Shown here: one piece after another, positions 2,537 through 62,104 of the stretch
How positions within the stretch are numbered: the first letter of the stretch is position 1
Layout of the letters: each line of letters opens with the position of its first letter
DNA from: Candidatus Saccharibacteria bacterium UBA2866
GTDB lineage: Bacteria > Patescibacteriota > Saccharimonadia > Saccharimonadales > Saccharimonadaceae
Length of the DNA: 64,000 nucleotides
Reading direction: 5' to 3'
Assembly (NCBI GenBank): GCA_002350545.1
Contig: DEEY01000002.1
Span: 38,166 to 102,165, forward strand
The notes under the pieces: generated by a model
The model's input: only the letters and a program-made list of their open reading frames with translations
What the model was told of the DNA's origin: nothing
The model's database searches: none
Position numbers and translations under genes: made by a program

Positions 2537-2653
2537 AAAAATCAGAAATAGTGCTTTGAGGGGCTCTCAAGAGTTACGACCGAGAATGAGGGCGCTTCGC
2601 CCGTGACGACGGGCCGAAGCGACCCGTCCCCGAAAAGCACTATTTTGATTTTT
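2537..2653. repeat. Intergenic palindromic element, subfamily 1 (related to the ileS insert)
   Basis: Arms AAAAATCAGAAATAGTGCTTT / AAAAGCACTATTTTGATTTTT. The core shares ACCGAGAATGAGGGCGC and GCGACCCGTCCC exactly with 37368-37419. Confidence 0.85.
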
Positions 2654-11391: not shown

Positions 11392-11420
11392 AATTCAATT
11401 ATATCACAGTTTAGCAAGAA

Positions 11421-11497
11421 TAGCATAAACACCTTTTCGAGGACCGTAGGCTTGGGCGAACGCCCTTGAGTGTGTCCGAGGAAAGGTGTTTATGCTA
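11421..11497. repeat. Intergenic palindromic element, subfamily 2
   Basis: Perfect 16-bp arms TAGCATAAACACCTTT / AAAGGTGTTTATGCTA. The 44-nt core is 40/44 identical to 26924-26967. Confidence 0.88.
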
Positions 11498-11507
11498 TAA
11501 TATGGAT

Positions 11508-12305
11508 ATGATAGTTTTATTTCGAGTGTTTTTATTTGTTCTTGGTGCTTGTATCGGCTCATTCCTTTGTTGCCAGGCACGTCGTTTCCGCCTTAAAGAG
11601 CAAAAAAAGAAATCACTTGGCAATCGCTCAGTTTGTCTGAGTTGTCATAAAAAACTAAAATGGTATGACAATCTGCCCATCATTTCATGGTTAATGCTGA
11701 AAGGGAAATGCCGTCACTGCCACAAAAAAATCGGCCTCGCCGAACTATTATCTGAACTCGGCACCGCACTTTCTTTTGTGCTACTTAGCTTCAATATAAA
11801 CATCCCCATCGCTTCCTCCATGGATTGGACCATTTTTGTCGCCACACTTCTCCTTACTACCATTTTAATTTTTCTCGCTATTTACGATGGGCTTTACGGT
11901 GAATTACCTACTGTTTGTCTCGTGCTTGCCATCAGTTGTGCCATTGCTATTCTAGCATTTAGAATTTATACCACTATTTCTTCAAGCGGTTTTGCCGCAG
12001 AACTTATCTGGAAACCATTAGTGTCATTTTCCATTCTAGGCGGAATATACTTAGTACTCTACCTTGTTTCCAGAGGTCGTTGGGTCGGTGATGGCGACTG
12101 GCTACTTGGCACTGCTATCGCACTCGCCCTTTATGATCCTTGGTTGGCCCTTGTTGCGCTTTTTCTTGCTAATTTTAGTGCCTGCTTGATCATGTATCCA
12201 GCCGTCAAATCCAAGAAAAATCACAAAATCCATTTCGGACCTTTCCTCGTTATTGCCTATATCATCACAGCTAGTTTTGCTAATTTCATTTTGAATATGA
12301 TATAA
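11508..12305 (+). CDS. pilD: Prepilin peptidase (A24 family)
   Basis: GSFL, two CxxC motifs, GDGD catalytic motif, FGPFL. Start set after the extended -10; ATG 11502 is an alternative. Confidence 0.92.
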   Translation: MIVLFRVFLFVLGACIGSFLCCQARRFRLKEQKKKSLGNRSVCLSCHKKLKWYDNLPIISWLMLKGKCRHCHKKIGLAELLSELGTALSFVLLSFNINIPIASSMDWTIFVATLLLTTILIFLAIYDGLYGELPTVCLVLAISCAIAILAFRIYTTISSSGFAAELIWKPLVSFSILGGIYLVLYLVSRGRWVGDGDWLLGTAIALALYDPWLALVALFLANFSACLIMYPAVKSKKNHKIHFGPFLVIAYIITASFANFILNMI

Positions 12306-18590: not shown

Positions 18591-18697
18591 AATTCAGTGA
18601 TAAAATCCGTCAGGTTGGTGGTTTCTTCGTGCGCAGCGCGATTACATCATCGAGCAAGCACGAAAAACCGCCAAAATGGCGGATTTTAGCCTGAATT
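18591..18697. repeat. Long imperfect palindrome between the GlnQ-like gene and tRNA-Arg
   Basis: Nested pairs AATTCAG/CTGAATT, TAAAATCCG/CGGATTTTA, TTGGTGGTTT/AAACCGCCAA, TTCGTGC/GCACGAA. Confidence 0.8.
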
Positions 18698-20053: not shown

Positions 20054-21727
20054 ATGGAAGAAATCAGGGAACAACTTAAAAAAGTTATTCAAGACCTTTA
20101 TGGCCTTGATTTTGCTCCCGAACTTACTCCTTCACCAGATAACATCGATGCTGATTATTCCACTAACGCCCCCTTAAAGCTCGCTAAGGAATTACACAAA
20201 AACCCAATGGAAATTGCAGAAGAAATCAATAGCAAATTAAATGCAAGCATTACTCCCCCTGGTTTTATCAACTTTGTTTTGCCGGATAGTTATCTAGCAG
20301 AGCAGATTAACAAATTAACTGATAATTTTACCGACAGTGTTAAATCCGACGAGTTTAAAGACAAAACGGTAATTTGCGAATTCAGCGATCCCAACCCCTT
20401 CAAAGTTCTCCACGTTGGCCATCTTTATACCAGTGTCGTTGGTGATTCTATTTCTAGACTTTTTGAATATGCTGGCGCCAATGTCATCAGGGCTAACTTC
20501 GGTGGCGATGTCGGACTCCATGTCGCTAAAACCATGTATATTTTGCAAAAAAAACCAATCGATACATTAACTATCGAAGACATTGCTAAATGTTATGTCG
20601 AAGGCACCGCCGCTTATGATGAAGATGAAGCTGCCAAGCAGGAAATCACCAAACTCAACAAGGAAATTTACAAGATTAATGCCGAGAAACTTCACAATAC
20701 GCCACTAGCTGAATTATACTGGAAAGGCAGGGAATTGTCTTACGACTACTTCCGTAATTTCTATGACCAAATCGGCGTCAAATTTGATAAATTCTACCCT
20801 GAATCTACTGTTGCGGGACTCGGCCTTCAAACTGTCAAAGAACAGCTCGATAAAGGCGTCTACCAAATATCTGACGGGGCTGTCATTTTCGATGGCGAAA
20901 AATACGGTCTCCATACCCGAGTGTTTATTAATCAAGAAGGTGTCCCCACCTACGAAGCTAAGGATGTCGGCCTCATCTTTACCAAATGGGACGATTACCA
21001 TTTTGATAAATCAGTTGTCATTACCGGCTCTGAACAAAAAGAATACATGGCAGTAGTTTTAAAATCAGTTGAACAATACGCCCCAGAACTCGTTGAACGC
21101 ACTACTCATCTCACCCATGGCCTTGTTAAACTTCCTGGTAACATCAAAATGTCTTCTAGAAAAGGTAATTTCCTTAAAGCCGTGGATGTTCTAGATATGG
21201 TCAAGGATGAATTAAAGAGCGAATATGATTCAAGCGACGAAACTGTCGCTCTCGCCGCTACCAAATATGCCTTCCTCAAATACAAAATGGGCGGCAATAT
21301 CATCTTCGACCCCAAAGAATCCGTCAAGATGACCGGCAACTCCGGTCCCTACCTCCTCTACTCCGCTGTCCGCGCCAAAAAGATTTTGTCAAAAGAATCT
21401 GAAAAGTTTCTCGGAGGGAGTAAGACTCGGGCTAGCGCCCCGGAGCGCTCCCGACGAGAAAGCTTTTCAGATTCTTATGAAAGGGCATTAATGAAGCGGA
21501 CGATCGAATATAAGGAGGTATTGACCGAAGCTGTCCATGAGATGGCCCCTCACAAATTAGCCAACTATCTTTACGAACTCGCCCAAGAATTTAGCCGTTT
21601 CTATGAAAACTGCCCAGTTATAGGCGCCGAAAACGAATCAGAACGCATTAAACTAGTCAAAATCTATCTCAACACTATGACTCACGGCCTAAACCTGCTT
21701 GGCATTAACATCCCGGAGGAAATGTAG
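20054..21727 (+). CDS. argS: Arginine--tRNA ligase
   Basis: EFSDPNPFKVLHVGH, KMSSRKG, GNSGPYLLY; start set after the extended -10. Confidence 0.96.
   Translation: MEEIREQLKKVIQDLYGLDFAPELTPSPDNIDADYSTNAPLKLAKELHKNPMEIAEEINSKLNASITPPGFINFVLPDSYLAEQINKLTDNFTDSVKSDEFKDKTVICEFSDPNPFKVLHVGHLYTSVVGDSISRLFEYAGANVIRANFGGDVGLHVAKTMYILQKKPIDTLTIEDIAKCYVEGTAAYDEDEAAKQEITKLNKEIYKINAEKLHNTPLAELYWKGRELSYDYFRNFYDQIGVKFDKFYPESTVAGLGLQTVKEQLDKGVYQISDGAVIFDGEKYGLHTRVFINQEGVPTYEAKDVGLIFTKWDDYHFDKSVVITGSEQKEYMAVVLKSVEQYAPELVERTTHLTHGLVKLPGNIKMSSRKGNFLKAVDVLDMVKDELKSEYDSSDETVALAATKYAFLKYKMGGNIIFDPKESVKMTGNSGPYLLYSAVRAKKILSKESEKFLGGSKTRASAPERSRRESFSDSYERALMKRTIEYKEVLTEAVHEMAPHKLANYLYELAQEFSRFYENCPVIGAENESERIKLVKIYLNTMTHGLNLLGINIPEEM
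21393..21476. repeat. Palindromic element in frame inside argS
   Basis: Arms AAGAATCTGAAAAG / CTTTTCAGATTCTT. The core resembles subfamily 2 and encodes ESEKFLGGSKTRASAPERSRRESFSDS. Confidence 0.85.
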
Positions 21728-23540: not shown

Positions 23541-23556
23541 TGCTATAATTATACCA
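23541..23556. promoter_or_regulatory. Bidirectional extended -10 promoter (palindromic TATAATTATA)
   Basis: TGnTATAAT on both strands within the 18-bp gap between divergent ATGs. Confidence 0.75.
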
Positions 23557-23557
23557 T

Positions 23558-26558: not shown

Positions 26559-26567
26559 GGATTGGCC

Positions 26568-27554
26568 ATGAAACGAATTCTTATTGTTTATAACCCCCGT
26601 TCTTCTCGTTATGCTGAGGTCAAAAAAGAAGTACTAGAACCGATTCATAGTCTTAAAGGGTATATCATCGGTAAATACGAGGTTAAACCCTCAAATCTTG
26701 ATGACAACATTAACAATCTTTCTAAATTATTAAAAGATGGCGATCTTGTCATTTCAGCCGGCGGTGACGCCACTGGTGTTATTGCTGCAAACGCTATCTT
26801 AAAATCCAAAAAAGACGTAACACTATCTGTTTTGCCTTTTGGCAATTTTAACGATCTCGCCCGCACTCTAGGAACTAACACCTTGAGCGAAATTCTTGAC
26901 ACGGGTGGCCGAAACCTATCTTCCGAGGACCGTAAGCTCGGCCGAACGGCCTTGAGTGTGTCCGAGGAAGATAGGTTCGGACAGGCCCCGTGTCAAAAAC
27001 TTTATCCCCTAGAAATCTGGGTAGACGATAAATTCTTCCGCTACGCCACTTGTTACGTTACTATCGGCATGACCGCTTCCGCTGTCTATTTATACGATCA
27101 ACCCAAAATGCGCAAAAAACTAAGAACCAATTTCGGTCGCAAAATCAGCTCCTATACCGAACTTGCCAAATGGTATTTCAAAAATCGCCACAAAAAGCAA
27201 TTTCTTCCAGAGTTTACCTTAAATGGCGTCAAGCAACATCCTAAAACTTCTGACTATGCCGCTGTCAACGGCCGTTCTATGGCACGAGTGATGAAGGGTG
27301 GCGACGATTTTTTAAGGCCGCATCATTTTCGTCACGAAACTGACCGCCTTACTAGTTTCCCCCGTTTAGCTAAACTAATGATTAAAAGTATTTTTTATCG
27401 TATTCCTGGGACCGATACCACCGGTGATACTTTAGAATTTACTAATCCTTCCATCGTTGAACTCCAAGCCGAAGGCGAGCACACTATCCTAAAGAATATC
27501 AAAAAAATTGAAATCAAAAAAGGAACTAAATGCCTGAAAGTCATCACGAATTAG
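26568..27554 (+). CDS. Diacylglycerol-kinase-like (DAGK catalytic domain) protein
   Basis: VYNPRS, AGGDAT, LPFGNFNDLAR, QAEGE motifs. Confidence 0.8.
   Translation: MKRILIVYNPRSSRYAEVKKEVLEPIHSLKGYIIGKYEVKPSNLDDNINNLSKLLKDGDLVISAGGDATGVIAANAILKSKKDVTLSVLPFGNFNDLARTLGTNTLSEILDTGGRNLSSEDRKLGRTALSVSEEDRFGQAPCQKLYPLEIWVDDKFFRYATCYVTIGMTASAVYLYDQPKMRKKLRTNFGRKISSYTELAKWYFKNRHKKQFLPEFTLNGVKQHPKTSDYAAVNGRSMARVMKGGDDFLRPHHFRHETDRLTSFPRLAKLMIKSIFYRIPGTDTTGDTLEFTNPSIVELQAEGEHTILKNIKKIEIKKGTKCLKVITN
26896..26996. repeat. Palindromic element, subfamily 2, in frame inside the DAGK-like gene
   Basis: Arms TTGACACGGG / CCCGTGTCAA and CCTATCTTCC / GGAAGATAGG; core 40/44 identical to 11438-11481. Confidence 0.88.
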
Positions 27555-28327
27555 AACAAGTCATAAAATACATGAAGTCACACTGGCCTTCCACGGTTAA
27601 ACCAGAGTGGCAGGTCGAACTAACCGAATATCCTGAAATCCTTCATAAAGTCATTTCGGATTTCACCATTGCTGCGACCAAAAATCACCACCTAATTCGC
27701 ATTGCTGGACTTTCCGGTTCAGGTAAGACCACTCAAATTCTCCCCGCAGTGGAGGCTTATAGTAGAAAGCATAACTTCGAGCCAATACTCCTAGCTGCTC
27801 GCCGTTTTGTAGAATATCACCCTCACTTTCAAGAAATTAAAGATTTCTACGGCGATAAAAACCTCCGTAAACTCACCGACGAGTTTAGCACCATTATGTT
27901 ATTTCTTACCCTGTTAGAGCTCACCAAGGGTGGCTATGATATTGTTTTAGATGTCACTCTTCTAGACCCTGAGATGGAGGCTATCTTGATTAAGATGCTA
28001 AAAGCAAATCAATATGATTTTACAATTTTGATGGTTGCAACCTCTCCTACTGTTACCGAAAAGTTTTTGCAAGGTCGTGCCTGGCGCCACTCTAAAGAAA
28101 CCGAACAAGAGTTTATTCGCGCCACCGAAAAAGCTCTAAGTTTTTATGCCAAAAACGCTCCTAATACCCACATTATTATCTGGAGCGTCTACGACTTAGA
28201 CCCTATTTACGACGGTCCAACCAAAGACTGCCTTAGTATTTTTCATGATTATTCTTCACGCACTGAACTCCCAAAACCAGACGACGATGCCCGACGTGAT
28301 GCTAAAATCGCTTATCTCACCAAATAA
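27530..28327 (+). CDS. P-loop NTPase, zeta-toxin-like
   Basis: IAGLSGSGKTT Walker A and DIVLDVTL Walker-B-like motif; size fits zeta-family kinases. Confidence 0.6.
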   Translation: MPESHHELEQVIKYMKSHWPSTVKPEWQVELTEYPEILHKVISDFTIAATKNHHLIRIAGLSGSGKTTQILPAVEAYSRKHNFEPILLAARRFVEYHPHFQEIKDFYGDKNLRKLTDEFSTIMLFLTLLELTKGGYDIVLDVTLLDPEMEAILIKMLKANQYDFTILMVATSPTVTEKFLQGRAWRHSKETEQEFIRATEKALSFYAKNAPNTHIIIWSVYDLDPIYDGPTKDCLSIFHDYSSRTELPKPDDDARRDAKIAYLTK

Positions 28328-42376: not shown

Positions 42377-42567
42377 AAATAACTCCATAAGTGAGCATTT
42401 GACAAACCCAGTTAATTTTTACAACTTTTCCTCATCCGAGGCGAGTAAAGTTGCCGAGCGAAGCTGAAAGCTTCGCGAGCTAGCAACTTGATCGAGACGA
42501 GGATAGAGTGAAATGTTGTAATAAATTAACATGGCGTGAAGTCAAGCGCGAACGAGTGGAGTTATTT
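42377..42567. repeat. About 190-bp imperfect palindrome between rplU and parA
   Basis: AAATAACTCCA/TGGAGTTATTT, TTACAAC/GTTGTAA, AAGTTGC/GCAACTT, CGAAGCT-GAA-AGCTTCG. Confidence 0.8.
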
Positions 42568-48744: not shown

Positions 48745-48881
48745 GGAAACAATAGCAAAAGAAATAAGCCGTTAGGCTTATTTTTAATTTGGGATTGGTA
48801 CCGGACAGAATGGATTCATCCATTCTGGTCGTGTACCGACCCAAATTAAAATAGCTCTGCTATTCTTTTGCTATTGTTTCC
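48745..48881. repeat. Palindromic element after tRNA-Val(CAC)
   Basis: Perfect 19-bp arms GGAAACAATAGCAAAAGAA / TTCTTTTGCTATTGTTTCC enclosing two hairpin domains. Confidence 0.85.
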
Positions 48882-61846: not shown

Positions 61847-61923
61847 GGGTCGCTAGCTCAGTTGGCTAGAGCGCCTCGTTTACACCGAGGAGGTCAGGAG
61901 TTCGAGCCTCTTGCGACCCACCA
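61847..61923 (+). tRNA. tRNA-Val(TAC)
   Basis: GGGTCGC...GCGACCC-A-CCA; anticodon loop TT-TAC-AC. Confidence 0.96.
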
Positions 61924-61960
61924 GAATAAAAAAATACCCCAAAAGGGTAGTTTTTTATTC
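61924..61960 (+). terminator. Intrinsic terminator after tRNA-Val
   Basis: GAATAAAAAA...ACCC-CAAAA-GGGT...TTTTTTATTC. Confidence 0.7.
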
Positions 61961-61966
61961 TGACGA

Positions 61967-62104
61967 TTGTAATGAGGCAAGAACTCCGTAGGAGTTCGTT
62001 CGCGGTAGGAGCCGAGCAAAAATCTAAAACTCGTTTCAGATTTTTCGAGGCGACGCCCCGCGGGAATGTTTTTCGCATAGCGAAAAACATGACGCCTCTT
62101 GACA
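61967..62104. other. Multi-hairpin structured element
   Basis: Outer pair GAGGC/GCCTC enclosing GAACTCC/GGAGTTC, AAAAATCT/AGATTTTT and ATGTTTTTCGC/GCGAAAAACAT. Confidence 0.65.

Follow-up and report, generated by a model that had tools for sequence, protein, structure and literature searches.

A diacylglycerol/lipid kinase-like gene (DAGK-like hereafter) on contig DEEY01000002.1 of Candidatus Saccharibacteria bacterium UBA2866 carries, in its reading frame, a long GC-rich hairpin element whose tip recurs elsewhere in the same stretch of 64 kb (positions 38,166 to 102,165 of the contig; this whole stretch is the window, and positions below are those of the window unless a locus label precedes them). 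The open reading frame (ORF) spans 26562-27554 and encodes 330 aa, and the true start of the gene is likely the ATG at 26568, as homologues begin with MKRIL or MQRI. The protein has 1071 homologues, all from Saccharibacteria wherever the source is named, and for comparison with the window we fetched orthologous and related loci (labelled L001 and so on), among them 80 species-representative loci with the DAGK-like gene that come from Candidatus Nanosyncoccus or from Saccharibacteria metagenome-assembled genomes of ruminant guts. An exact 901-base stretch is also present in at least 20 independent public runs of 10 studies, covering ruminant and other gut metagenomes.

The element makes the difference between long and short forms of this protein. 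Homologues fall into two length classes, of about 300-303 aa and of about 321-359 aa, and all length differences fall at one point, between '...TLGTKTLEDV' and 'KLYPLEI', with orthologues that lack an insert being 28-30 residues shorter than insert carriers. Throughout the 80 species loci any insert is in frame and stop-free and the ORF is continuous, the translation being read from the sequence. AlphaFold2, run on the alignment, gave a model with a mean predicted local distance difference test score (pLDDT) of 74.9 and a predicted template-modelling score (pTM) of 0.77, in which residues 115-141, located between the well-predicted N-terminal domain and the next beta strands, have a pLDDT below 50 (30-33). 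Because these residues also lack regular structure in the model, the element is predicted to encode a disordered interdomain loop.

An in-frame hairpin and its intergenic sister share a core

The coding copy (26890-27000) folds into a long hairpin of -60.7 kcal/mol (z -7.8), and a copy between the divergent genes for a pilin-like protein and the prepilin peptidase (pilD) folds likewise (11405-11515; -45.4 kcal/mol, z -7.2). Direct comparison of the two tips, 26924-26967 and 11438-11481, revealed differences at 4 of 44 positions: an unpaired A/G (CGUAA in the coding and CGUAG in the intergenic copy), a C/U in GCUC/GCUU that turns a C-G pair into U.G, and a paired swap that converts GGCC-GAAC-GGCC into GGGC-GAAC-GCCC and accounts for the other two. 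An earlier note, made from the letters of the window, had described just such a palindromic element in the reading frame of the DAGK-like gene together with an almost identical intergenic core that differs by a compensatory swap, and both descriptions hold (the hairpin at 26896-26996 lies inside the ORF), with the refinement that the unit common to the two copies is the core alone. This core (core A) has 37 nt, GGACC...GTGTCC, and is bordered in the coding copy by a tandem GA/GA internal loop (26925-26926 and 26964-26965); beyond it, the arms of the two hairpins have no sequence in common. A degenerate 45-mer of the core matched at these 2 places only in the window and in 0 of 100 shuffles, and against the Rfam 15 covariance models none of the elements had a match at the gathering threshold or a credible one at E<=5-10.

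The core is a dispersed palindromic repeat

The core is not a mere pair of sequences but a dispersed palindromic repeat, the flanks and arms of its copies differing by locus. When contigs of ruminant-gut runs were placed on the window, depth rose to 514-656 over 26907-26980 against 24.9 on both flanks, and a similar peak in ruminant-gut metagenome contigs stood over 11423-11485. Many distinct flanks surround the core in metagenome contigs, and they come as complementary pairs. The repeated part measures about 40-50 nt and occurs some 20-26 times, summed over the organisms in the samples, as against a single copy for the arms at the DAGK site. A covariance model (R1) of core A plus its 10-bp inner arm, run over 1.5 Mb of Nanosyncoccus DNA, picked out 20 related copies, and family members elsewhere include those in L010, L081 (with a 38-nt core variant), L093, L077, L040 and L027. 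The cores of other GC-rich hairpins of the window also recur in many of the 80 loci; taking cores A, B and C together, 48 of 64 copies are intragenic, and most intergenic copies of core A are found between divergent genes. Viral contigs scanned with the core pattern yielded no match.

Two pairs of copies share their arms at different loci. In L010 and L081 each copy lies at the 3' end of a gene with the stop codon in the left arm, and in L077 both copies have the same arms. The L010 gene concerned is the orthologue of the gene that follows the DAGK-like gene in the window (27530-28327, with a Zeta_toxin/AAA_33-like kinase fold and a 25-nt overlap with the end of the DAGK-like gene); the left arm of a core A hairpin contains its stop codon and 3' end and alters its last residues (LEKLK* against LTK*).

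The coding copy is old and its pairing is maintained

Core A occupies the same codon position in orthologues at 96% (L086-L088), 84% (L082/L083) and 63-67% (L089-L091) protein identity, and is present in nested form in L092 and L093. The 37-nt core is identical in the window, L086, L082 and L089, with one change in L090. In codon alignments of the window with L082, L089 and L090, third-codon identity is 44-49% over 294 flanking codons, which is saturated, versus 13 of 13 in the core. From these alignments the coding copy is old, as orthologues whose synonymous divergence is saturated have this core at an unchanged codon position, and near-identity of cores is to be read as constraint and not as a clock, since the core is shared at 63-67% protein identity. 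The recent spread that the earlier note had deduced from near-identity thus finds no support as far as the coding copy is concerned; of the two copies, only the intergenic one shows presence or absence among related strains, the comparison that the note had proposed.

While the core is frozen, the arms change in pairs. The left arm is homologous to, yet diverged from, those of L089-L093, with compensatory changes: the inner arm pair reads CCUAUCUUCC / GGAAGAUAGG in the window, UCUGUCUUUU / AAAAGACAGA in L090 and UCCGUUCUCC / GGAGAAUGGA in L089, the arms being diverged yet complementary throughout. One outer-stem pair runs from A-T (window) through G.T (L086) to G-C (L082), and the other 2 differences between the window and L082 lie in bulges. 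In a MAFFT alignment made independently of structure, 88.5% of cells were paired, compared to 75% after shuffling of columns and 29-48% with slid partners, and 19 of 39 pairs had changed on both sides. In a model-fitted alignment of 18 distinct copies, pairing reached 94% of cells (74% when shuffled), both sides had changed in 14 of 22 pairs, and all 10 inner-arm pairs covaried. The proposal of the earlier note that selection acts on secondary structure even in the coding copy gains support from the double substitutions, the A-T/G.T/G-C series and the frozen synonymous sites of the core, with the caveat that palindrome-templated DNA repair would also give paired changes.

The encoded peptide is less well kept. 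In L091 the core carries ggc>ggg and gcc>ccc, which preserve the stem and turn Ala into Pro, and its peptide differs further by L>S and S>N; core C (see below) is read in 2 different frames at the DAGK site of different species. Constraint on the coding copy thus acts at the level of the nucleic acid rather than of the peptide, because synonymous sites of the core are frozen while the arms evolve by compensatory substitution, and because L091 alters the peptide with pairing kept and core C is used in 2 frames.

Hot spot, nested cores and a deletion allele at the DAGK site

Of the 80 species representatives, 54 lack an insert at the DAGK site, 17 have a strong hairpin with another core (core C or a GGGGGACCCCC-type core) and 9 have inserts that are not hairpins. 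The core C family occupies the site in L001, L003, L005, L011, L021, L025, L054 and L061. An outer shell, ACGGGTGRC...CAGGMCCCGT, is common to elements with different cores, that of the window included, and the window's inner shell is found also in L005 and L054, both of which carry core C. In L092, L093, L075 and L077 a C-like unit is inserted within the core A shell, giving nested composites. Since homologous shells hold different cores and since such composites exist, cores are gained inside pre-existing hairpins. L031, L039, L042, L043 and L055 show Lys/Glu-rich inserts of low complexity, 20-30 residues long, whose DNA does not fold into hairpins (-12 to -19 kcal/mol), and because these stand at the same codon position the DAGK loop tolerates unrelated insertions.

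In L084 and L085 (allele P0003) a stretch of 78 nt that comprises the left arm and the core is missing between two GAGGA repeats. Their orphan right arm is 100% identical to that of the window in otherwise diverged DNA, which points to a recent deletion and not to an ancestral empty site; the GAGGA repeat at the DAGK site borders a deletion and not the element. This allele (L084:2803-2940, L085:1801-1938) offers a natural control for tests of function.

Two accounts of how the arms came about were considered and rejected. That arms are created at insertion as inverted copies of the flank was first suggested by P0003, which keeps the right arm, and by the right arm at 11493-11498, which is native promoter sequence; as a general rule it fails because arms recur at different loci in L010/L081 and in the L077 pair, because P0003 is better read as a 78-nt deletion and because homology of the DAGK arms extends across lineages. 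Also rejected was the recurrent insertion of whole elements with the DAGK arms, since these arms are single-copy in metagenomes that contain this genome.

Two palindromic promoters split by intergenic copies

Strains with 97% PilD identity carry the intergenic copy with one core change (CCAUAGG). In strains with 82-83% PilD identity the stretch 11407-11492 is absent and only a 30-nt spacer remains, and contigs in 2 runs skip the element likewise. The empty pilin/pilD spacer (L097:2971-3000, L100:1263-1292) forms a compact palindrome in which two -10 boxes, both with a TGn extension, diverge, and reads cat-AAGCCTATTATACCATGATATAATTAGGAT-atg or cat-AACTTAATTATAACATGTTATAATGAGAAT-atg (ATTATA-CCATGA-TATAAT / ATTATA-ACATGT-TATAAT). 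The additional 86 nt of the window (11407-11492) stand at the centre of this palindrome, the outermost stem pairs being native promoter sequence. The spacer upstream of dnaG offers a second case: in the window it is empty (23541-23557) and is a palindromic bidirectional promoter of 17 nt, CAT-ATGCTATAATTATACCAT-ATG, while core A-type hairpins fill it in plus orientation in L093 and L027 and in minus orientation in L077. As judged from sequence, then, each of the two intergenic sites for which empty alleles are known is a compact, palindromic divergent promoter that is split at its centre or close to it. Together with the nesting at the DAGK site, these split promoters suggest that insertion takes place at the centre or apex of existing palindromes. 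With regard to pilD itself, the transcript is probably leaderless, because 6 nt separate the -10 box from the ATG that follows it, and in the window the gene would truly start at 11508 and not at 11466 or 11502.

The elements favour the sense strand

Intragenic copies of cores A-C stand in sense orientation 48 times versus about 2 in antisense. The sense strand folds better than its complement at 32 of 37 filled DAGK sites, and among strong hairpins (<= -50 kcal/mol) of plus-strand genes it is the better folder in 92 cases versus 25, while weaker, ordinary coding windows lean the opposite way. The core moreover contains an invariant G.U pair and a C-G/U.G alternation. These strand results favour a structured plus-strand form. 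The only clear exceptions in 1.5 Mb are two family members of opposite orientation, L068:2911-2935 and L068:15372-15412, one of them antisense in an ORF of 516 residues.

Coordinates of the element, its host gene and related elements are collected in Table 1. Other strong hairpins of the window adjoin tRNA genes or lie intergenic (48745-48881, 18601-18688, 38279-38404 and 61885-62004); their stems are AT-richer and they have no core A, B or C motif. In a close relative, a gene downstream of a Fib_succ_major surface-protein gene (L082:14969-16105) has a weak match to RVT_1 (reverse transcriptase) and may belong to a diversity-generating retroelement cassette.

Table 1. Features of the window discussed in the text (window positions)
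Feature	Position	Strand	Remarks
DAGK_cat host gene (diacylglycerol/lipid kinase-like)	26568..27554	+	Pfam PF00781, E 3e-11, residues 5-107
Whole hairpin element	26896..26996	+	101 nt, translated in frame in the DAGK-like gene as roughly residues 112-145 (ORF of 330 aa), LDTGGRNLSSEDRKLGRTALSVSEEDRFGQAPCQ; inverted repeats I11 and I15
Left arm	26896..26924	+	outer shell UUGACACGGGUG, CCGAA, inner shell CCUAUCUUCC; pairs with 26966-26996
Conserved asymmetric 37-nt core (core A)	26927..26963	+	GGAC / CGUAA / GCUC-GGCC-GAAC-GGCC-UU-GAGU / GU / GUCC
Right arm	26966..26996	+	GGAAGAUAGG, UUCGG, bulge A-CA-GGC, then CCCGUGUCAA
Intergenic sister hairpin	11420..11498	+	core 11441-11477; between divergent -10 boxes of the pilin-like gene (-, starts 11391) and the prepilin peptidase gene (+)
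Related element, core B	21389..21480	+	same layout, GAGUAAG plus hairpin; BLAST matches in L047 and L068
Related element, core C family	37326..37441	+	core family recurs at the DAGK site of other loci
Related element, core C family, second window copy	2537..2653	+	core recurs in the fetched loci
Probable further family member	42411..42530	+	CCGAGG...GAGUAAAG motif, rod-like fold

Discussion

We consider it reasonably probable that the feature in the DAGK-like gene represents a copy, translated in frame, of a GC-rich palindromic repeat dispersed in Nanosyncoccus, akin to tagged repetitive extragenic palindromes (REPs) and to Rickettsia palindromic elements (RPEs), that spreads and is read as follows. 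The unit would spread as DNA, probably via a single-stranded hairpin intermediate, by entering existing palindromes and hairpins at their apex or centre, and within genes it would survive only where 28-29 additional residues are harmless. The single-stranded form of the plus strand, either mRNA or unwound sense DNA, would be recognised by a putative trans-acting factor that reads the core on its stable stem, and such recognition would hold the core fixed and the stem paired.

Several observations weigh against this proposal. Arm identity is 94% between the window and L082 and only 48-62% between the window and L089-L091, a jump that steady evolution in place fits poorly and that bursts or recombinational exchange of hairpins could explain. 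No transposase, RAYT or partner protein was identified, nor does Y1_Tnp appear in the Pfam annotation of the fetched loci, and the filled and empty pilD junctions show no direct repeat, i.e. no target-site duplication. Situated upstream of the -10 boxes, the intergenic copy may go untranscribed, which bears against a reader acting purely at the RNA level; one metatranscriptome run gave only a 151-nt contig downstream of the hairpin and no RNA reads over it. The strand and orientation counts include many orthologues, which are not independent events, and G.T outnumbers A.C in the stems only 13 to 7 once the two inherited wobble positions of the core are excluded. Nearly all sampled genes are on one strand, so that gene sense is inseparable from one replication strand, and almost none of the hairpins in minus-strand genes are true elements, which leaves them no power to separate sense from chromosome strand.

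Some of the same observations suit a neutral palindrome, maintained by template switching in quasi-palindromes while gene conversion from other copies keeps the core uniform. We regard this as unlikely, although it deserves to be taken seriously: homologous partners elsewhere exist for the core only, as conversion requires; the arms change fast and are nonetheless near-perfectly paired; C.A intermediates occur in some metagenome flanks; and the modest excess of G.T over A.C, as well as the loss in L084/L085 of the DNA between short GAGGA repeats, in the manner of replication slippage at this hairpin, are in keeping with it. Frequent conversion, however, predicts the reverse of what is seen in the cores, where the two window copies differ at 4 positions and distant orthologous copies are identical. 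A symmetric DNA mechanism does not predict the sense-strand bias of 92 to 25 against background either, and palindrome repair leaves the conserved unpaired CGUAA, the UU bulge and the GA/GA loop unexplained. The strand bias is at home in another scheme, which we hold to be improbable, namely a cis-acting mRNA structure (an exonuclease stabiliser, a processing site or a ribosome pause) that the host selects locus by locus and for which mobility is secondary. Sense orientation in 48 of about 50 intragenic copies, the greater stability of the sense strand with its conserved G.U pair and C-G/U.G alternation, and the L010 and L081 copies at stop codons, where REP-like stabilisers act, all speak for it, and REPs are thought often to act as RNA elements (PMC3733652). 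It is at odds with the many copies between divergent -10 boxes, which are probably untranscribed, with the inverted L077 copies at the dnaG site, with the lack of an Rfam match at E<=5 and of RNA reads over the hairpin, and with the absence of an obvious benefit of a -60 kcal/mol hairpin in essential ORFs.

A module selected at the protein level, in which the inserted peptide (SSEDRKLGRTALSVSEE) matters and the hairpin is incidental, would agree with an insert that is hydrophilic, in frame and stop-free in every orthologue examined. This explanation is largely refuted and keeps very little probability, given that all 13 synonymous positions of the core are frozen, that L091 keeps the pairing with an altered peptide (A>P, L>S, S>N), that core C is translated in 2 frames and the region is predicted to be disordered (pLDDT 30-33), and that at 11441-11477 this core stands in non-coding DNA. 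Chance similarity or an artefact of assembly might be suspected from the way assemblers break at the core, leaving unitigs of 35-55 nt, yet we give it a negligible chance: shuffles produced 0 matches in 100, the exact 901-base stretch was recovered from at least 20 independent runs of 10 studies, a 13.3-kb contig spans the element without differences, and the independent assemblies L086-L088 and L082/L083 carry it.

Returning to the repeat that spreads as DNA and is read on its plus strand, a more far-reaching form of this proposal, which is possible and which we advance only tentatively, would see the cores as functional recognition modules: an invariant asymmetric single-stranded RNA or DNA motif, presented on a covarying stem and read by a putative Saccharibacteria factor, that spreads into hairpin and palindrome apices as 'Russian-doll' elements in essential genes and bidirectional promoters, a mode not described before.

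Among known systems the element bears comparison with several. RPE-1 to RPE-10 (Ogata et al., summarised in PMC10969869 and PMC3733652) are in-frame palindromic repeats in housekeeping genes. Tagged REPs are imperfect palindromes of 20-40 bp with a stem of 5-13 bp, a loop of 2-20 nt and an unpaired GTAG or CGTC tag, and they are associated with a RAYT (Y1 tyrosine transposase) gene; intragenic REPs that code for 20-30 residues exist, and RPE-4 and RPE-6 are CGTC REPs (PMC3733652). RPEs are dispersed hairpin-forming repeats of about 100-150 bp, to which the element described here comes close in hairpin length (101 nt) and in its multi-copy core, but not in its single-copy arms. With RPEs these repeats have in common that they occur in the reduced genome of a host-dependent bacterium, that they are found in frame in unrelated housekeeping genes as additional surface or loop peptides and also between genes, and that no transposase is known for either. 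They belong to another phylum and are compared by description, which makes them analogues of RPEs rather than members. Here, in contrast to RPEs, the repeated unit is the tip of about 40-50 nt only, the arms being unique to the locus; cores are nested in older shells, different cores occupy one hot spot, and the core is frozen at synonymous sites across species, whereas RPEs have been described as decaying in place.

The likeness to REPs lies in the core. Its inner hairpin, GCUC-GGCC-GAAC-GGCC-UU-GAGU, falls within REP dimensions, with an 8-bp stem that includes a bulge and a 4-nt loop; it is preceded on one side by an unpaired motif, and there are some tens of copies. That motif varies among copies (C-GTAG-G in the intergenic copy, CGTAA in the coding copy, CATAA or CATAG in relatives), so that the tag would be (C)RUARG and not strictly GTAG or CGTC. 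Unlike REPs, which lie mostly outside genes, downstream of unidirectional or convergent ORFs, the copies are mostly in genes or between divergent promoters, L010 and L081 excepted, and the core sits in long locus-specific stems, not in head-to-head dimers. Miniature transposable elements with inverted repeats (MITEs) such as Correia, ERIC and Nezha (PMC10969869) are similar in being small, non-autonomous palindromic repeats that can fuse in frame to ORFs and can carry or split promoters. In contrast to MITEs, terminal inverted repeats are not conserved between the window copies, though some subfamilies share arms, no target-site duplication was seen at the pilD junctions and no parent insertion sequence was identified. 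The GC clusters and double-hairpin elements of fungal mitochondria are likewise GC-rich hairpins in an AT-richer genome and include in-frame cases, as in var1 of yeast mitochondria. This is an analogy only, as those elements are organellar, unrelated in sequence and differently structured. In the literature searched we found no paper describing such elements in Saccharibacteria or in the candidate phyla radiation (CPR), and we read the element as a REP/RPE-like intragenic palindromic repeat that is new for Saccharibacteria.

In practical terms, the core breaks metagenome assemblies into unitigs of 35-55 nt and inflates the variation in protein length in these genomes. Genomes of Saccharibacteria and other CPR bacteria are tiny, and dispersed repeats in their essential genes are therefore unexpected. 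The DAGK locus amounts to a clean natural experiment, with one element at one codon position across species, a frozen core, covarying arms, core replacement and a deletion allele. It makes testable whether intragenic palindromic repeats, such as RPEs and intragenic REPs, are tolerated or constrained, whether such constraint acts on RNA or on single-stranded DNA, and how these repeats choose their targets.

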